Source: a virus
Direction: 5' to 3' (one strand)
DNA length: 64,000 bases
IMG/VR virus record: IMGVR_UViG_3300045988_126367
Part shown: piece after piece, positions 2,951 to 56,622 of the stretch
Layout of the letters: each line of letters starts with the position of its first letter
Position numbering within the stretch: the first letter of the stretch is position 1
Position numbers and translations under genes: made by a program
Notes under the pieces: generated by a model
Databases searched by the model: none
What the model saw: only the letters and a program-made list of their open reading frames with translations
Told to the model about the DNA's origin: nothing

Positions 2951-4036
2951 TCACTCCTTCACAGGCCCCTGATCCCGCACCATGTCGGCGAAGATGCTAT
3001 TGAAATGCTTCTTGAAGTCAAAGGCGGACTGCACCTTCCTGCCCCACCATTCGCTGTCCAGCGAATAGTCCATGACATTTGCCATGGTTTTCCAGCTCAC
3101 CTTGTTTTCCTGATGAAGCCGTTCCATGGCATCCGCCCAACGCTGCAGGTCGTCCTCTGTAGGCTGCGCCCACCCAGGATTGTCCATTTCCTTCTGCTCA
3201 GCAAAGTAGCGTGCCGCACGGTATGCCTTGCTCTCTGGGGGATAGACGGTCTCCGGCGCTTTCTTCCCCCTGTCCAGTTTGTCAAACAGGATGCCCTGAT
3301 AGTTGTTTGCCATGCTGTACCGTATCTGCTGCGCCACCGCACCATCTCCCATGGCTTTGGCCTTGTTCACCAGTTGGGAGATCAGGTTCTGATACCCCTT
3401 GGGCTTATAGAATTCCTTTCGGTTCCGCTCCCACTTGTAGTCCAGCCACTCATTCACCGCATCCAGCAGGTCGCCCGTAAAGCGTTCTTCTGTCTTTGGG
3501 TCCATCACAGGGCGGCTTTTTTTCTCCTTGTCCCCCCGTGGGGGGATATAGGGGGGTATATCTTCTATCTCTGACTCTATCTCTGACTCTGACTCTGACT
3601 CTCCGTAACCGATTTCGCACGGTGTTGTAACATCGTTACCGCCATGTTCGGGCAGGGCGCTGTTTTTCCTTGCCCGATACTCCCGCATACGCTGTGCCGC
3701 AGCGCCCTCGCTGCCCACATTCTTCACGGAGAAAGGCAGAAAAACCTCTGTCAGATCGTCGGACGCCTCCGCCAGTCCGCAGGAGATCAGGTACTGCAGC
3801 GTGACCTCCACATTGGCGGGATCTTCGTCCAGCTCCAAGGCCAGCTCGTCGGCAATGTTCTCCTCCAGCCCCGACCATTTCAGCGTGCCATCGTGCTTCA
3901 TTGCCACCAGCTGCATTTTCAGGTAGATGATGACGTAGGTGTCGCCTCCCGCGATCTTCCGCAGTTTTTTAATGCGCTTTGAGGTGAAGAAATCGTCATA
4001 CAGCCGCAGCCAGAAATACCGCTTTTCCTCCGCCAC
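2951..4036 (-). CDS. phage replisome organizer / DnaD-like replication initiator
   Basis: N-terminus MAEEKRYFWLRLYDDFFTSKRIKKLR matches the phage_rep_org_N pattern; GTG start after AAGGAGG; acidic (ES/EI)n linker encoded by DNA repeats. Confidence 0.8.
   Translation of the reverse strand: MAEEKRYFWLRLYDDFFTSKRIKKLRKIAGGDTYVIIYLKMQLVAMKHDGTLKWSGLEENIADELALELDEDPANVEVTLQYLISCGLAEASDDLTEVFLPFSVKNVGSEGAAAQRMREYRARKNSALPEHGGNDVTTPCEIGYGESESESEIESEIEDIPPYIPPRGDKEKKSRPVMDPKTEERFTGDLLDAVNEWLDYKWERNRKEFYKPKGYQNLISQLVNKAKAMGDGAVAQQIRYSMANNYQGILFDKLDRGKKAPETVYPPESKAYRAARYFAEQKEMDNPGWAQPTEDDLQRWADAMERLHQENKVSWKTMANVMDYSLDSEWWGRKVQSAFDFKKHFNSIFADMVRDQGPVKE
3537..3640. repeat. two exact sequence boxes plus CT-rich hexamer repeats inside the replisome-organizer gene (ori-like), repeated at 26835-26946
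   Basis: box1 CGTGGGGGGATATAGGGGGGTATAT (25 nt) and box2 CCGTAACCGATTTCGCACGGTGTTGTAAC (29 nt) identical at both loci; GTAAC-N3-GTTAC palindrome follows. Confidence 0.75.
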
Positions 4037-9148: not shown

Positions 9149-9921
9149 AACTGTCCCTCCCCTCTGTCCATCGCCGCGGTGATACCTTTAGCGGTCAAGA
9201 TCTCGTGGATCAGCAGCCGCCCCTTCTGTGTCCACTGCGTCAGCATCCTCGAATCGTGGCTTCCGTCACTTCTCAGGATCGGAATTGTCTTGCTCTTGGT
9301 GTAGCCTTTCCCCATGTGTCTCTTGTAGAGGATCCACTGTCCGTTTACACTGCGTTGGATACCTGCATCGAAAAGGATCTTGTTAAGTGCCTTGGCGCTC
9401 AAGTTGTAATCCGCCGCCACCTGTGAGGTAGCCATAGCAGACGGGCTTTCAAGGATTGTGTCCACATACTGGCGGATCGGTTCAAAGTCGGCGATGGCCT
9501 GTGCCTGACGCTGGTTCTCGGCCAGCAGCTTCATTTTCTGTTCCTCTGCATCTGCAAGGGCGCGGAGAGCGGAGGGATAATCCTTCGGTACGGCGTAAGC
9601 GCCGGTCTTGCGGATGGTGGGGAGAATTTCATCAAAAATCCAACTTTCAAACTTCTCCGCGCCAGGAAGCTTGGATCGCGCCGCAAGGCGATAAACATTT
9701 CCCTCCGCAATAAACGTTGCTTCCTGCGTTCTTCCGAGGGCATCAACGATGGGGTAACGTTTCGTTAGGTCACCCCGGCAATGGTCGGAAATTGCCTTAC
9801 TGGGGTTTTGGTAACCCAGCGCTTTTGCGACATCGCTTGCGCAAAAGAGGACGTTTCCGTTTTCCTCAACGGTACGGATGGTGCCGAACTCCGGGCTGTT
9901 GAAAATCTGCAGCTCGTTCAC
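9136..9921 (-). CDS. phage antirepressor (BRO-N plus KilAC/ANT domains)
   Basis: MNELQIFNSPEFGTIRTV...FCASDVAKALGY Bro-N motif; C-terminal KilAC-like. Confidence 0.8.
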   Translation of the reverse strand: MNELQIFNSPEFGTIRTVEENGNVLFCASDVAKALGYQNPSKAISDHCRGDLTKRYPIVDALGRTQEATFIAEGNVYRLAARSKLPGAEKFESWIFDEILPTIRKTGAYAVPKDYPSALRALADAEEQKMKLLAENQRQAQAIADFEPIRQYVDTILESPSAMATSQVAADYNLSAKALNKILFDAGIQRSVNGQWILYKRHMGKGYTKSKTIPILRSDGSHDSRMLTQWTQKGRLLIHEILTAKGITAAMDRGEGQLCLK

Positions 9922-25095: not shown

Positions 25096-25189
25096 GCACC
25101 CCAAGGGTACTTGTTTCACTGCGGGGGCAGGCCGCCCTACACACCAACCACCGATAAACCGCCGTAGGGCGGGGTGCCCTCACCCCGCC
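25096..25189. repeat. REP-like hairpin cluster R1
   Basis: inverted long module ending CCCTAC, then GTAG-GGCGGGGTG-CCCT-CACCCCGCC (hairpin 25168-25189). Confidence 0.8.
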
Positions 25190-33984: not shown

Positions 33985-35034
33985 ATGAAATTCATCAATT
34001 TCGACAAGGCAGCATCCACCCCCCTGCACCCGGCGGCAAAACGTGCCTTTCTCCAAGCCTGTCAGGGAAACCCCGCCAGCGCCCACGCCCTTGGCCGAGA
34101 AGCAAAAGCGGAGCTGGAACAGGCCCGCCAGGCCATTGCCCATTGCCTCAACTGCGAAAGCGACGAGGTGTATTTCACCTCCGGCGCCACGGAAGCCTGC
34201 AACTGGATGATGTACTGTCTCTCCACCACTGGCCATAAGGTCTACCCCTTCTCCGATGTCCATCACGCCGTCAGCGAATACCCCGTCCCCCACGCCAGGG
34301 GTAACGAGGGCGTCAGCAGCGGAAATGTGGCCGCTTCCCTCGTCAATAACGAGACGGGACAAGTTTGTAGCATTTCTCCTCTCCGTGCCGTCTGTGGCGG
34401 CCTTATTGGCCTTGACGCCACCGCCGCGGTAGGACATATCCCCATGGACTTCAAAGCCCTTGGCGCGGATTACATGGCCTTTGGCGGCCACAAGTTCGGC
34501 GCCCCCAAGGGCATCGGCGCTCTCATCGTCCGCCGCGGCGCACCCATCCGCCCCATGGTCTACGGCGGCGCGCAGGAGCGCGGTATGCGCGGCGGCACAA
34601 CACCCGTCCCGCTGGCCGCTGCCATGGCCGCCGCCCTGGAATGGCATACCAAACACATGAAAGAAAACATGCTCTCCGTGTCGGACGTCAATAATGAACT
34701 CACGCGGTATCTCTTTATCCTTGGTGTGAAACACGATAACAACCTCCCCAATGGCGCAATCTTCGCCCCCCATATCCTGTCCCTTCGCTTCCCCGGCGTC
34801 TACGGGGCCACCCTGGCCGCCGCCTTGAGCGACAAGGGCGTCTTTGTCTCCACCGGCTCCGCCTGTTCCTCCGGCTCCAACCGCCCCAGCGATGTCCTCC
34901 GCGCCGCCGGCCTCACCTCCCAGGAAGCCCTCTCCACCATCCGGTTTTCCTTCGACTATGATAACACGGAGGACGAGGCCCGCACCGCCGCCGCCATCAT
35001 TGCCGAACTCATCCCCACCCTCAAGCACGATTGA
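33985..35034 (+). CDS. NifS/IscS-type cysteine desulfurase (class V aminotransferase), short form
   Basis: start MKFINFDKAAST after AAAGAAAGGAA; PLP-lysine context GGHKFGAPKGIGAL; active-site loop STGSACSSG. Confidence 0.8.
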   Translation: MKFINFDKAASTPLHPAAKRAFLQACQGNPASAHALGREAKAELEQARQAIAHCLNCESDEVYFTSGATEACNWMMYCLSTTGHKVYPFSDVHHAVSEYPVPHARGNEGVSSGNVAASLVNNETGQVCSISPLRAVCGGLIGLDATAAVGHIPMDFKALGADYMAFGGHKFGAPKGIGALIVRRGAPIRPMVYGGAQERGMRGGTTPVPLAAAMAAALEWHTKHMKENMLSVSDVNNELTRYLFILGVKHDNNLPNGAIFAPHILSLRFPGVYGATLAAALSDKGVFVSTGSACSSGSNRPSDVLRAAGLTSQEALSTIRFSFDYDNTEDEARTAAAIIAELIPTLKHD

Positions 35035-35368: not shown

Positions 35369-35500
35369 CGGCCTGCCGTACCCCGTCAATAGTCCAGCAA
35401 ACCGCTATTTTCATCACGACCTTTTTTGAGAGAGGGTCGTACCATTATTGTATGCCCTCTTTCACCAAAAATCAACATTATTTTGAAAGAAGGTATCCCT

Positions 35501-36526
35501 ATGCCGCGCACCTCAAAAGCGGAAAGAAAGCTCTGTCAAGCCTCAGACGCCTACCTGAAAAACGTGGCCGCCACCTCTCCCTCCCCCCGTACCGTCACCA
35601 CCTACGCCAGCACCCTCACGGATTTCATGAATTTCTTCATCTCCGGCGACGAGAATTATAAAGACCCCAGCTATACCACCATCGCCGCCTGGCGGGACAG
35701 CCTCGTGGAGCGTGGTCTCTCCCCCAACACCGTTCGCCAATATCTGGTCCGCCTCCATATGTTCTTCGACTTCGCCTGCGACGTGACCTGCGGCGGCTGG
35801 TATTCCGCCAATCCCGTCTCCAAGCGCTTTTTCCCCAAAACGGCCCGCGAGGAGGCCCGCCCCTACGATCCCATCCTCACCGACCGGCAGGTCATGCTCC
35901 TCTGGCGCTATGACAAGGCCCCCGGCTGCCGTCGTGACACATGGCCCCGGAATTACGCCATCGTCATCATGCTGCTCACCACCGAGCTGCGAAACGCAGA
36001 GCTGTTGTCCCTTACCCCCGCCGATCTCGACTGGGAGGCGGGAGAGCTGATCGTCGAGCGGGGCAAGGGCAATAAATTCCGCCGCGTGGAGTTTCCGGAA
36101 ATCGCCCAGTCCGCCGTCCGGCTCTATCTCGCCTCCGGCCTGCGCCCCAAAGACGTACCCGATACCGCCCCCCTCTTCGGCACCACCAGCCCCAAGGAGT
36201 TCGGTGCCCGCGTCCGTGACGGCGCGTGGGTGCGCGGCTCCTCCCAGTGGCTCTCCGGCGTCGTCCTGCGCCATGTCAAGGCCGTCACCGGTGTGGATAA
36301 CGTCCGTACCCACGACCTGCGCCACGTGGGTGCCCGTCTGGATCTCAATTCCGGCATGTCTCAGGCGGAACTCCAATCCAAGCTGGGCCACGCCAACCCC
36401 AACACCACCCAAATCTATTCCGGCCGCCTCCTCAGCCGCACCGGCCGCAAAAGCGCCGTCCTCGTCCGCGAAGAACAGGAAAAACAGTCCGACCTCATCG
36501 CCAATCTACTCGACTCCGGCGCATAA
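35501..36526 (+). CDS. int: tyrosine recombinase/integrase (int2)
   Basis: start MPRTSKAERK; SAM-like N-domain (TVTTYASTLTDFMNFF), RNAELLSL, HDLRHVGA, TTQIYSG catalytic-region motifs. Confidence 0.85.
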   Translation: MPRTSKAERKLCQASDAYLKNVAATSPSPRTVTTYASTLTDFMNFFISGDENYKDPSYTTIAAWRDSLVERGLSPNTVRQYLVRLHMFFDFACDVTCGGWYSANPVSKRFFPKTAREEARPYDPILTDRQVMLLWRYDKAPGCRRDTWPRNYAIVIMLLTTELRNAELLSLTPADLDWEAGELIVERGKGNKFRRVEFPEIAQSAVRLYLASGLRPKDVPDTAPLFGTTSPKEFGARVRDGAWVRGSSQWLSGVVLRHVKAVTGVDNVRTHDLRHVGARLDLNSGMSQAELQSKLGHANPNTTQIYSGRLLSRTGRKSAVLVREEQEKQSDLIANLLDSGA

Positions 36527-36553: not shown

Positions 36554-36762
36554 CTTGGCTCCCCTTGCGAGGGGAGCTGTCAGCCGAAAGGCTGACTGAG
36601 GGTCGGGGCGTTAGGAAAACATGCCGGTGGCATGTTTTTAGCCCCGATCTTGGCGGCTATGCCGCCAAAGCATCCATCTGTATTTGCACCGCACTATCGG
36701 TGTTCGTCCGTAGGGCGGGGTGCCCTCACCCCGCCGTAGGGGCTGGCGTCCTCGACAGCCCG
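36554..36762. repeat. REP-like mosaic cluster R10 (between int2 and endolysin)
   Basis: two-hairpin module 36554-36604, AAAACATGCC module, two GTAGGG hairpins. Confidence 0.85.
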
Positions 36763-36850: not shown

Positions 36851-38056
36851 TTATTTCTTTTCCACCGTTGTGACAAACGTCTCCGGAAACACCTTCTGTA
36901 CCTTCTTCAAATACGCTTCCGCGTTGGCCTTCACGCTGAACGCACCCACCTGAACCCGATAGATCACGTTCCCCGCCGTGGCCGGCTTGCTGGCCGCCGC
37001 CTTGAACGTCACACCCAGATAGCTGCAGATGCCCTTGGCGATGGTCTCGCCGATCAACTCCGTGTTGTCGATGATCCACTGTGCCACCTCCGGCACATCG
37101 TGGAAATCCACCTCAATGTACACCGTAGGAGCGGCAGGCGTTTTCACTTCAAACAGATTGGGGTTGGCCTTGATGTTCTCGCTTGTCCCCGGCGTCAGCG
37201 GGGCCAGCACATCGAATACGGCCTTCGCCGCCTTGTACCCTTCCGTGGTCTTGTCCAGCTGATAGCAGAAGATCCGCGTCCCGCTGGCCTTGCCGTTGGC
37301 TGCGTTGGTGTGGATGGGCACATGCAGATTGGCCTTAAAGGCGTCCGACGCCTTGCACCGGTTCGCCATCGTGTCGTACTGTCCCACCATCACCTTCACG
37401 CCGCTGCGCTCCAGCGCCGTCTTGCAGGCCGCAGCGATCTTCCCGCACTGCACGTCCTCCGTGGTGTTGCCCACGGCGTAGGTGTTGCTTTTCTGATCCG
37501 ATGGTGAAAGATATACCCGCTTTTCCATCGTCTCCTCCTTCTCTCCGTAGGGCGGGCGGAAGATGGCCCATGTCCCGCCCGTGGGCATGTTCCGCTTCTT
37601 GTACCCGATGCCCTCAAAGGCGCCCGTCCCCGCGGTGGATAGCCGCGCCTTCTCCGCCGTGGAGAATACCATGTTGTTCCCCTCCAGCGTGATGAACGTG
37701 GTGCCGCTCACCTTCTCATAGACAAAGAACACATGCTGGTACATCCACCGCTTTTCCTTCTCGTTGTACTGGCAGAAAAAGGCGATGTCCCCCTTCTGCG
37801 CCTTGCTGTTGTCGCGCAGCCGCCAGCCCTTGGCCGTCAGCCACTCGCCCAGGCTGCGGCACCACGCGGGGTTGGCGCACCCGTCCAGGATGTAGGGCTT
37901 CCCGCTCATCCGGTCGGCGTACCAGATGGTGTACCCGCAGTACGCCACTCCCTCCGCGTTCCAGTATCGGTTTACCATGGTGTTGTTGCCGCTGCCGGTC
38001 TCCCGTTCTCCCGCCAGCTTCTCTACAGGAGCCAGCATTTGAGATACAGTTTTCAT
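36851..38056 (-). CDS. modular endolysin: CHAP/NlpC-P60-like peptidase, N-acetylmuramoyl-L-alanine amidase (Amidase_3-like), SPOR domain
   Basis: GVAYCGYTIW...QHVFFVYE (Cys/His peptidase); VPIHTNAANGKASGTRIF...YIEVDFHD (amidase_3); C-terminal YRVQVGAFSVKANAEAYLKKV (SPOR). Confidence 0.8.
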   Translation of the reverse strand: MKTVSQMLAPVEKLAGERETGSGNNTMVNRYWNAEGVAYCGYTIWYADRMSGKPYILDGCANPAWCRSLGEWLTAKGWRLRDNSKAQKGDIAFFCQYNEKEKRWMYQHVFFVYEKVSGTTFITLEGNNMVFSTAEKARLSTAGTGAFEGIGYKKRNMPTGGTWAIFRPPYGEKEETMEKRVYLSPSDQKSNTYAVGNTTEDVQCGKIAAACKTALERSGVKVMVGQYDTMANRCKASDAFKANLHVPIHTNAANGKASGTRIFCYQLDKTTEGYKAAKAVFDVLAPLTPGTSENIKANPNLFEVKTPAAPTVYIEVDFHDVPEVAQWIIDNTELIGETIAKGICSYLGVTFKAAASKPATAGNVIYRVQVGAFSVKANAEAYLKKVQKVFPETFVTTVEKK

Positions 38057-38408: not shown

Positions 38409-38638
38409 GACATTACCTCATCTTTCGTTTTGATTTTGATCCCTGCCAGCAGGGCCAACTCAACTGTCCACGCCCCGAACCACGCTACCGTCAGCGCGTC
38501 CGGCACGATCTTGTCAAAAAACGCCGCCACGATCACCGCGATGCAGTACCACGTCAGGTTCACCACCGCCAAAATCGTAAACTTCGTCCGCCGCTTCATC
38601 GGCTGTTTCTTCTCCACCCGCTTCACATCCTCCATCAT
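38405..38638 (-). CDS. two-TM holin-like membrane protein
   Basis: 77 aa; FTILAVVNLTWYCIAVIVAAFF and WFGAWTVELALLAGI. Confidence 0.5.
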   Translation of the reverse strand: MMEDVKRVEKKQPMKRRTKFTILAVVNLTWYCIAVIVAAFFDKIVPDALTVAWFGAWTVELALLAGIKIKTKDEVMS

Positions 38639-38674
38639 CTCCTTTCACTGCTTGGCACTCCTTGTGCCCCGCCC

Positions 38675-39050
38675 CTTGGCTCCCCTTGTCAGGGGAGCTG
38701 GCAACGCGAAGCGTTGACTGAGGGGTAGTCCGTAGGGGCTGGCGTCGGGGCGTTCAGAAAATATGCCGGTGGCATATTTTTAGCGCCGATCTCGGCGGCT
38801 ATGCCGTCGGCGTGTTAAGAAAACATGCCAGTGGCATGTTTTTAGCCCCGATCTCGGCGGCTATGCCGCCGTAGCTTCCATCTGGGCTTCCACCGCACCA
38901 TCGGTGATCGTTCCGTAGGGCGGGGTGCCCTCGCAGTGAAACAAGTGCCCTTGGGGTACACCCCGCCGCTTCGTAGGGGCTGGCGTCCCCGACAGCCCTT
39001 GCCTCCCTCTGACGAGGGAGGTGTCACCGAAGGTGACGGAGGGAGAGAAC
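38675..39050. repeat. REP-like mosaic cluster R11 (between lysis and tail-fibre genes)
   Basis: two two-hairpin modules (38675-38728, 38998-39050), two AAAA(C/T)ATGCC modules, three GTAGGG hairpins. Confidence 0.85.
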
Positions 39051-39119
39051 AAAAGTCTTAAATTCTCTCCCCCATCCTCGCTACCGCTCGGCAGCCCCCT
39101 CCCAGAGGGGGCCTTTCCC

Positions 39120-39389
39120 TCACTCGCCCTCGCTCGCCCCATTCTCCGCAACCTCCACCCCCAACGTCTCCAGCGCCTCGGCATACAGTGCGGCGGCCTG
39201 CACCGCCTCTTCCTCCGCCGTCAGCACCTCCACGCCGTCGCGGTAAAACCTGCCGTCCTCATAGGTGTCGCCGATCTCCACCTGCCGCTCCCCCAGCTTC
39301 ACCGCGCCGGGGAATTCGTCGGCGTTGGTCTCATACAGCCAGATGATGTTGGTCACGATCCCGTTTTCTACCAGTGCGTAATTCATCAC
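39120..39389 (-). CDS. hypothetical protein
   Basis: 89-aa ORF, ATGA overlap with upstream gene. Confidence 0.5.
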   Translation of the reverse strand: MMNYALVENGIVTNIIWLYETNADEFPGAVKLGERQVEIGDTYEDGRFYRDGVEVLTAEEEAVQAAALYAEALETLGVEVAENGASEGE

Positions 39390-56261: not shown

Positions 56262-56622
56262 CGTAGGGGCGGGCGACTTTGCCCGCCCTATCGAGGGCGC
56301 TGCGGTCATCGTTTGGGCGGATACCCCAAGGGCACTCGTTTCGCTGCGCTCCACAGCGCTGGTCGTCCGACCCTACGCACCATCCGCGGCAACCCCTTCG
56401 TAGGGCGGGGTGCCCTCACCCCGCCGCCCGATCTCCGCCGCACCCCTTGTACCCGTCCGTAGGGGGCGGCGTCCTCGACGCCCCGTGCCTCCCTTGTGTA
56501 AAGGGAGGTGGCGCGTAGCGCCGGAGGGATTGTCCTAAGATGGTGCGGTGTATACTTGCTGGATGCTACGGCGGCATAGCCGCCGAGATCGGGGCTAAAA
56601 ACATGCCACCGGCATGTTTTCT
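56262..56622. repeat. REP-like mosaic cluster R14 (inside virion operon)
   Basis: several GTAGGG/CCCTAC hairpins, two-hairpin module 56485-56535, inverted AAAACATGCC module. Confidence 0.85.

Follow-up and report, generated by a model that had tools for sequence, protein, structure and literature searches.

Positions 38,675 to 39,050 of the IMG/VR virus record IMGVR_UViG_3300045988_126367, analysed here as a stretch of 64,000 nucleotides (the window), carry copies of a two-hairpin module in which three segments appear to change together: an arm (A), its complement (A') and a tail (A'') lying downstream of a second hairpin. The question raised by this locus is what relation ties the tail to the two arms, and what kind of element is built upon it. 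A first-pass annotation, made from the letters of the DNA, had taken the tail as a repeat of the 3' arm A' and had proposed that A pairs with either A' or A'', in the manner of a switch. Our analysis shows instead that A'' is the mirror image of A', and that it relates to A as the third strand of a triple helix and not as an alternative duplex partner. The module is probably a member of a widespread family of dispersed intergenic repeats of ~50 nucleotides (nt), in which a single strand is built to fold into an intramolecular purine-motif triplex.

The mirror-image tail and the triplet rule

Each module of ~50 nt consists of the pyrimidine arm A, a first loop of 3–5 nt (TGTC being the most frequent loop 1 in the family), the purine arm A', hairpin 2 and the tail A''. 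The copy at 38.7 kb (+ strand) may serve as the example: arm A (GCTCCCCT, 38679–38686), the 5' arm of hairpin 1, is followed by loop TGTC (38687–38690), by the purine arm A' (AGGGGAGC, 38691–38698), which is the Watson-Crick partner of A and the proposed central strand of the triplex, by hairpin 2 (GGCAACGC-GAA-GCGTTGAC, 38700–38718) and by the third-strand segment A'' (TGAGGGGT, 38719–38726), a mirror of A' that follows the triplet code described below at 8/8 positions. Its hairpin 2 has a three-base GAA loop with C-G closure, contains GCGAAGC, and bears one G.A mismatch near the base. In the window copies A'' is the plain complement of A when both are read in the same 5' to 3' direction, as in GCCTCCCTC to CGGAGGGAG, GCCCCCTC to TGGGGGAG, GCCCCCTT to TGGGGGAT and GCTCCCCT to TGAGGGGT. 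The mirror relation between A' and A'' excludes Watson-Crick pairing, replication-based copying and symmetric protein binding as its source; it is the geometry of a triple-helix third strand. The strand order, namely pyrimidine arm, complementary purine arm and reverse-Hoogsteen domain, is that of all full window copies and of 241 copies with distinct flanks elsewhere.

The rule that links A to A'' was counted in fixed register over a set of 180 unique modules collected without regard to the tail (from the window, IMG/VR viral contigs, Clostridia and Bifidobacterium). Where A has C, A'' has G (923/960, 96%); where A has T, A'' has A (235/354) or T (110/354), the two together accounting for 97%; and a G at the stem base of A is answered by T (120/125, 96%). 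Third-strand T thus stands over A-T pairs in 31% of cases and also over the C-G pair. The rule matches the antiparallel purine-motif DNA triplex code (G.GC, A.AT, T.AT), in which the GA/GT motif lets A and T replace one another freely where they face an A-T pair (PMC2532714). The whole set of 342 unique arm/tail pairs comprises 50 arm sequences. Read parallel to A over this set, the triplet rule was obeyed at 0.827 of positions compared with 0.692 when tails were shuffled among copies (z 21.6); it was perfect over the whole stem in 193 of the 342 and had at most one mismatch in 227. A direct-repeat relation between A'' and A' was rejected, since it was perfect in none of the 342 pairs; the same count, with upstream flanks that are unrelated, disposes of the idea that A'' is a target-site-type duplication, which the first-pass annotation had named as one case that would undo its proposal.

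The three-way covariation that had been noticed in a handful of copies proved real and strong, in the parallel register of A and A''. In a paired-column test on 32 distinct arm/loop/tail haplotypes with 500 shuffles, A against reversed A'' was paired at 84.4% of positions compared with 75.7% after shuffling, a value reached by 0/500 shuffles; the covariation score was 0.283 vs 0.163, and slid registers gave 43–68%. When A and A'' were instead set against each other as an antiparallel Watson-Crick duplex, pairing was 66.4% vs 65.5% shuffled (reached by 119/500 shuffles) and the covariation signal was absent, so that the supposed switch behaves like shuffled data. Covariation extends over some 20 or more arm types: about 20 were seen each with its predicted tail, and among them the states at positions 1, 3, 7 and 8 are combined in every way. 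For positions 1 and 7, each of the four combinations is present and is accompanied by the tail that matches it, so the changes recurred.

Prospective evidence came from two scans defined by A and A' alone, the returns of which were mostly chance hairpins. In high-GC viral contigs (64–73% GC) these scans recovered the full architecture with new types that obey the rule (test-set z 6.5), namely CCCTCCCC > GGGTGGGG, CCCTCTCC > GGGTGAGG, CCCTCCCT > GGGTGGGA, CCTCCCCC > GGAGGGGG or GGTGGGGG, and CCTTCTCC > GGAAGAGG or GGATGAGG. A scan for arms with T at position 6 (SCTCCTCY) returned chance hairpins only.

As all three segments are homopurine or homopyrimidine, partial matches among them arise easily, and the high-GC types (GGGGAGGG ... 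GGGTGGGG) hold four G-tracts; the pattern might accordingly be a by-product of low-complexity G-rich/C-rich sequence, a target-site duplication or a G-quadruplex repeat. This is very improbable, since the controls with shuffled tails, slid registers and resampled windows all fell below the observed values, interruptions shift in step at positions 1, 3, 4, 5, 6, 7 and 8, upstream flanks are unrelated to the tail, and the commonest types have two G-tracts, too few for an intramolecular quadruplex. Within the window, the hairpin-1 pattern gave 5 matches compared with 0.00 expected from 100 dinucleotide shuffles, and a census blind to the tail, which sought a pyrimidine-arm hairpin with a matching third segment, counted 7 modules in the window, whereas all 20 Markov resamples were devoid of them.

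Hairpin 2 and the choice between DNA and RNA

It had also been noted that the hairpin 2 sequences are unrelated to one another and still pair, and this holds across the family: 203 of the 214 unique middle segments, taken from modules defined by A, A' and A'' only, fold into one hairpin. The loop-closing pair is C-G in 176/203, and the loop is G-N-A in 88/203, with C-G closure in 85 of these 88. A G-N-A loop closed by C-G is the d(GCGNAGC) mini-hairpin, a signature of very stable DNA and not of RNA: d(GCGAAGC) melts at 76.5°C, compared with 39°C for r(GCGAAAGC), and the motif has been found in single-strand initiation signals and phage origins (PMC13037366). Hairpin 2 occurs in subfamilies with compensatory changes (e.g. 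GTCGGC/GCCGAC vs GTCAGC/GCTGAC); that it is made anew in each copy was ruled out, as a few such subfamilies account for the Bifidobacterium copies. The 3' end of A' and the 5' end of A'' both lie at the base of hairpin 1. There they are bridged by hairpin 2, which is preceded by a single T and directly followed by A'', the position of the connector that a class II triplex needs. This connector, T plus a hairpin of 14–25 nt, has a modal total of 16–20 nt. When the window copies were folded as single-stranded DNA, hairpin 1 and hairpin 2 were predicted in each of them and the tail was left free (Z-scores −2.7 to −6.0), by nearest-neighbour rules that score Watson-Crick pairs only and have third-strand contacts outside their scope.

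The two strands of the module are not equivalent. The purine-motif code on the module strand fits 96.5% of positions, compared with ~80% for the complementary strand under the pyrimidine motif, since T>T and G>T positions violate the latter code. Purine-motif triplexes do not form in RNA (PMC4666352), and the loop bias of hairpin 2 is both strand-specific and DNA-specific. Signals of the kind expected of RNA elements are absent. A T-run follows the module in only 3/211 copies, a start codon with an open reading frame (ORF) lies within 14 nt of the tail in only 18/211, and orientation relative to genes, as called with a gene caller based on GC at third codon positions (GC3), shows no bias in the bacterial genomes (35 same, 28 antisense, 17 convergent and 20 divergent); an intrinsic terminator or a switch sequestering a Shine-Dalgarno sequence was ruled out on these counts. 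The Rfam search that had been suggested as a check returned only three transfer RNAs (tRNAs) in the window at gathering score and only noise in 38600–39150 (E > 0.8), with nothing relevant at gathering or E-value thresholds.

These results bear on the view that the module acts as RNA, that is, as a transcript with two hairpins whose tail offers A a second pairing partner (in a switch or pseudoknot), mimics a Shine-Dalgarno sequence or, on the complementary strand, takes part in a pyrimidine-motif RNA triplex (C+.GC, U.AU). The hairpins would fold as RNA too, the tails hold GGAGG-like strings, and the complementary strand, in the order third strand, pyrimidine arm and purine arm, makes a legal class IV triplex; such pyrimidine-motif intrastrand triplexes are possible in RNA (PMC4666352), and 30/44 co-oriented cases in viral contigs put the complementary strand in mRNA. 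We nevertheless consider an RNA element unlikely, given the lack of an Rfam match, of antiparallel A:A'' covariation and of bacterial orientation bias, the scarcity of nearby start codons and T-runs, and the poorer fit of the pyrimidine-motif code. Moreover, its 4–5 adjacent protonated cytosines would be unfavourable at neutral pH (PMC2532714), and the G-N-A loops with C-G closure towards which the purine strand is biased are a DNA-specific stabiliser.

The preferred fold, an intramolecular triplex of single-stranded DNA, has the strand order of class II, which runs from a 5' pyrimidine arm through a purine arm to a 3' reverse-Hoogsteen strand. Its Watson-Crick duplex would be hairpin 1 (8 bp, A with A'), and hairpin 2 would act as a fast-folding, very stable DNA mini-hairpin in place of the classical short second loop. 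By turning the chain, hairpin 2 would bring the G-rich tail A'' back along A', to which it would run antiparallel in the major groove of the hairpin 1 duplex. The tail would form G.GC, A.AT or T.AT triplets there, and at the stem base its T would stand over the C-G pair. We infer that the triplex may form transiently, on DNA that becomes single-stranded in replication, repair, transfer or phage strand displacement, and that selection may act on the fold; the joint change of the three segments suggests that it has been kept by natural selection.

With low confidence, the most likely role would be one in cis on single-stranded DNA, where the folded element would be a compact knot from which the single-stranded-DNA-binding protein (SSB) is excluded. 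Such a knot could be read by a structure-specific protein (a primase, a nuclease or the element's own transposase) or could stall polymerase, and either would explain both the spread of the element and local genome instability. That the triple helix itself is the selected functional single-stranded-DNA signal, for instance an SSB-excluding knot read by primase, nuclease or transposase and spread between phyla by phages, is a tentative proposal that we rate somewhat below an even chance.

Comparison with published triplex-forming repeats

The first-pass annotation had not recognised the module as a described element. Its kind has been published, as the E. coli repeat BoxC, also known as PIT (potential intrastrand triplex) and TMECO, with the sequence CCCTCNCCC N3-6 GGGNGAGGG N3 GGGNGAGGG (PMC4666352); for the present family, in contrast, full-text literature searches for its sequences and related terms found no description, and a hairpin-bridged, multi-type triplex repeat family appears to be undescribed. 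The class II purine-motif intrastrand triplex of TMECO has been proven by nuclear magnetic resonance (NMR) and circular dichroism (CD), and the repeat is without known function or orientation bias and is associated with variable loci; the same paper (Holder et al. 2015) makes no mention of Bifidobacterium, Firmicutes, Clostridia or covariation (PMC4666352).

The two families are alike in being short, dispersed intergenic repeats with class II strand order and G.GC, A.AT and T.AT triplets, without orientation bias or a promoter or terminator role, and linked to local genome variability; the high-GC type CCCTCTCC / GGAGAGGG / GGGTGAGG uses the TMECO triplet set. They differ in loop 2, which is a variable hairpin of 14–25 nt with a DNA mini-hairpin loop in the present family and 3 nt in TMECO, in the stem (8 triplets compared with 9), in having many covarying arm types whereas TMECO has essentially one conserved sequence, and in their hosts: the present family occurs in Clostridia of the gut, in Bifidobacterium, in phages of these bacteria and in high-GC viral contigs, the other in Proteobacteria and cyanobacteria. 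The TMECO consensus had 0 matches in the window and 0 in 301 loci. The E. coli repeat was reportedly also the subject of work by Hoyne and Maher (2000).

Published triplex finders admit loops of 1–6 nt (ITxF) or 0–10 nt (Hoyne et al.), and the second connector of the present module is too long for this short-loop criterion, which belongs to the search tools and not to triplex chemistry; a published finder restricted to 1–6-nt loops would therefore miss the family, as existing short-loop finders miss hairpin-bridged designs in general. H-DNA shares with the module the mirror symmetry of the purine strand and the reverse-Hoogsteen triplets of the purine motif. Unlike the module, however, H-DNA arises from supercoiled duplex and leaves one half-strand free, whereas here all three strands, including the Watson-Crick partner A, come from one strand and the tracts are only 8 nt long. 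Hairpin 2 is often the exact motif (GCGAAGC, GCGTAGC, CCGAAGG) of the d(GCGNAGC) mini-hairpins in the G4 origin, RSF1010 ssiA and N4 early promoters, signals that act on single-stranded DNA and resist SSB (PMC13037366), although these signals are single-copy functional sites without a triplex arm.

Several points weigh against a triplex that forms and matters in cells. In vivo dimethyl sulfate (DMS) footprinting of TMECO detected no stable triplex (PMC4666352). No partner protein of the present module was found, and triplex and function are both read from sequence. Viral contigs show a mild antisense bias (30 vs 14). Some abundant types have a fixed non-canonical position (CCTTCCCC > GGATGAGG; CCCTCCCC > GGGAGAGG or GGGCGGGG), and there are types with a one-base insertion (xCTCCCCC > xGAAGGGGG). 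The copies share descent, and cell counts overstate the number of independent events. Finally, the acceptance of T over a C-G pair as a purine-motif triplet is drawn from the general triplex literature.

It is 25 years since intrastrand triplex repeats became known, to our knowledge without evidence for the third strand mattering in vivo, and whether BoxC/PIT triplexes form and matter in cells has been open since the 1990s; as the E. coli motif is nearly invariant, comparative tests on it are impossible. A third strand that changes with its duplex by the purine-motif code provides evidence of the sort by which the secondary structures of RNAs were established, and it makes the question of whether DNA triplexes form in cells testable, in culturable Bifidobacterium and in small phages with ~20 copies. 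If the triplex is the selected object, its three-way covariation would be the first proof by evolutionary comparison that intramolecular triplexes of DNA do form, and do matter, in the living cell. A natural triplex clamped by a mini-hairpin might also find use in DNA nanotechnology.

Dispersal of the family and its copies in the window

Related loci were gathered from IMG/VR viral contigs with an exact 22-mer and arm-only patterns, and a genome scan yielded at least 120 loci. The hosts among the matches listed were Clostridia of the gut (Faecousia, Acutalibacteraceae, Oscillospiraceae, Ruminococcus and Fimenecus) and many Bifidobacterium species of primates and bats, and an identical 22-mer is common to Clostridia, Bifidobacterium and phages. 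In the 241 copies with distinct flanks, conservation ends at one upstream G (−1) and at a downstream AG(T/A) (+2 or +3), from which it follows that the unit is the dispersed module of ~50 nt. A podophage-like contig of 14.7 kb (L013) carries ~20 modules, mainly in convergent pairs that fill most of its intergenic regions.

Copies turn over between close relatives. Relatives in which the cysteine desulfurase is 94% and 89% identical to that of the window retain the gene order. In the spacer between integrase and endolysin, however, the window has a module of type GCTCCCCT (+) and contig L174 one of type GCCCCCTC (−), whereas L176 has none. At a site common to two Bifidobacterium species, one has the module intact and the other has it interrupted by ~110 nt. 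Two phage contigs that are nearly the same in other respects (L011 ~9655–9770 vs L013 4103–4157) differ by a 59-nt insertion exactly in loop 1 of a CCTCCCTC module, which suggests that other small elements insert into hairpin loops. An empty orthologous site with clean insertion boundaries was looked for and none was found; the sites recovered were replaced or disrupted.

Dispersed copies with unrelated flanks and sharp conservation limits, orthologous spacers that carry other types or none, the 22-mer shared by Clostridia, Bifidobacterium and phages, and arrays shared with GTAG-hairpin, REP-like repeats would all suit a small mobile element of REP/MITE type, read by a transposase or other protein without any triplex, the tail being a guide-like or cleavage-site segment whose match to the stem is imposed by the protein. 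IS200/IS605 and REP-associated transposases do read folded single-stranded DNA with non-canonical base contacts. This explanation is nonetheless improbable: a mirror relation has no known basis in protein symmetry, since dimers read inverted or direct repeats, no transposase lies beside the modules in the densest contig (a search of L013 met phage structural genes only), and the modules have neither terminal inverted repeats nor target-site duplication. A protein site is, moreover, compatible with a triplex as the recognised object and competes with it only in the form that denies the triplex.

Like REP/BIME (with RAYT Y1 transposases), BOX and MITE-type repeats, the module is short, structured and intergenic, and it shares with them mosaic arrays, frequent inverted pairs and fast change between strains. 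Unlike REP/BIME, it has no 5' GTAG but a single conserved upstream G, GTAG being present only inside the 3' tail of one type; and unlike all of these repeats, it has a third segment that follows the triplex code. No associated transposase was identified for the module, a RAYT gene not having been searched for genome-wide. A MITE was rejected because the two ends do not form inverted repeats, for which the tail would have to be the reverse complement of the arm that it mirrors, and because the module is bordered by unrelated sequence without a target duplication.

A large high-GC sister family was observed in nine IMG/VR viral contigs (L246, L254, L266, L281, L282, L288, L301, L256 and L265) of 67–73% GC, L265 alone being below 70%. 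Its types are CCCTCCCC / GGGGAGGG / hairpin / GGGTGGGG and CCCTCTCC / GGAGAGGG / long hairpin / GGGTGAGG.

In total the window holds seven complete copies of the module, one eroded and one truncated. All the copies listed by the first-pass annotation were present where it had placed them, and two complete copies on the − strand (33475 to 33434 and 39112 to 39067), each tail-to-tail with a + strand copy, were additional to its list. The five complete + strand copies lie at 31379–31426, 33369–33417, 38679–38726, 39002–39045 and 56488–56530.

Close to the 38.7 kb copy, the copy of a second type at 39002–39045 (+) has A CCTCCCTC (39002–39009), loop TGAC, A' GAGGGAGG (39014–39021), hairpin 2 GTCACC-GAA-GGTGAC (39023–39037) and A'' GGAGGGAG (39038–39045; 8/8). 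Tail-to-tail with it, the added copy at 39067–39112 (−) has A GCCCCCTC (39112–39105), loop TGG, A' GAGGGGGC (39101–39094), a hairpin 2 with tandem G.A (39092–39075) and A'' TGGGGGAG (39074–39067; 8/8). The copy at 31379–31426 (+) comprises A GCCCCCTT, loop GTGTA, A' AAGGGGGC, hairpin 2 GCCGAGC-AAAA-GCGAGGC (tandem G.A) and A'' TGGGGGAT (8/8), and that at 33369–33417 (+), upstream of the HU gene, comprises A GCTCCCCT, loop TGTG, A' AGGGGAGC, hairpin 2 GGCACGGC-GTAT-GCCGTGAC and A'' TGAGGGGT (8/8). Its tail-to-tail partner at 33434–33475 (−), the other added copy, has A (C)CTCTCCT, loop TTTA, A' AGGAGAG, hairpin 2 GGCGC-GAA-GCGCC and A'' GGAGAGGT. Between the integrase stop and the endolysin stop, the eroded copy at 36558–36604 (+) has A GCTCCCCT, loop TGCG and hairpin 2 GTCAGCC-GAAA-GGCTGAC, its tail A'' being reduced to TGAGGGTC (6/8) at an abutting neighbour repeat. 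The copy inside the prophage at 56488–56530 (+) shows A CCTCCCTT, loop GTGTA, A' AAGGGAGG, hairpin 2 GGCGC-GTA-GCGCC and A'' GGAGGGAT (8/8). The truncated copy at 63946–63965 (+) reads GCCTCCCTT GTGTA AAGG and then passes into unrelated sequence, and with the break inside the 3' arm it is not triplex-competent.

The modules occur in both chromosomal and prophage parts of the window, within mosaic arrays of other repeats. Genes called on an identical metagenome contig (L171) are HU at 33555–33830 (+), a cysteine desulfurase at 33985–35034 (+) and an integrase at 35426–36526 (+), after which comes a prophage with an endolysin at 36851–38056 (−), a tail protein and a tape-measure protein. That the whole window is phage was ruled out by the chromosome genes (HU, cysteine desulfurase) with the integrase at 33.5–36.5 kb. 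The block of integrase, endolysin and tail genes (35426–36526 (+) onward) stands at the same site after HU and cysteine desulfurase in L174 and L176, which are 89–94% identical; the same chromosomal site in relatives of only this identity indicates an old or repeatedly targeted prophage site. In L177 an unrelated ORF takes the place of the integrase gene. Positions 1–1846 of L171, compared with 31213–33058 of the window, show the otherwise identical contig joined differently across a repeat array, which is probably a repeat-induced misassembly.

Three REP-like repeat families of the window, made of GTAG(G) and a GC-rich hairpin (e.g. GTAGGGCGGGGTGCCCTCACCCCGCC), are stacked with the triplex modules in mosaic intergenic arrays. 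One lies on the + strand at 25164, 31143, 32722, 33340, 35119, 36710, 55211 and 56400, and related sets lie at 26457/36729/38966/55070 and 26369/32741/33927/35143. A repeat family of ~115 nt, with an AT-rich hairpin (AAAATATGCCGGTGGCATATTTT) first and then TAGCGCCGATCTCGGCGGCTATGCCGCC, occurs at 31192, 33208, 36580, 38722, 38784, 44218, 55081 and 63824, and also at the orthologous spacer in L174. Three tRNA genes (31674–31753, 31928–31998 and 32369–32437, +) adjoin repeat arrays, and in the Rfam alignment the first of them (31674–31753) has a 23-nt stretch at the anticodon region compared with the usual 17. Lastly, a 69-nt repeat at 3566–3634 and 26861–26929, the copies of which are 87% identical, starts with short CTCTGA/CTCTAT tandem units and continues with CCGTAACCGATTTCGCACGGTGTTGTAAC.

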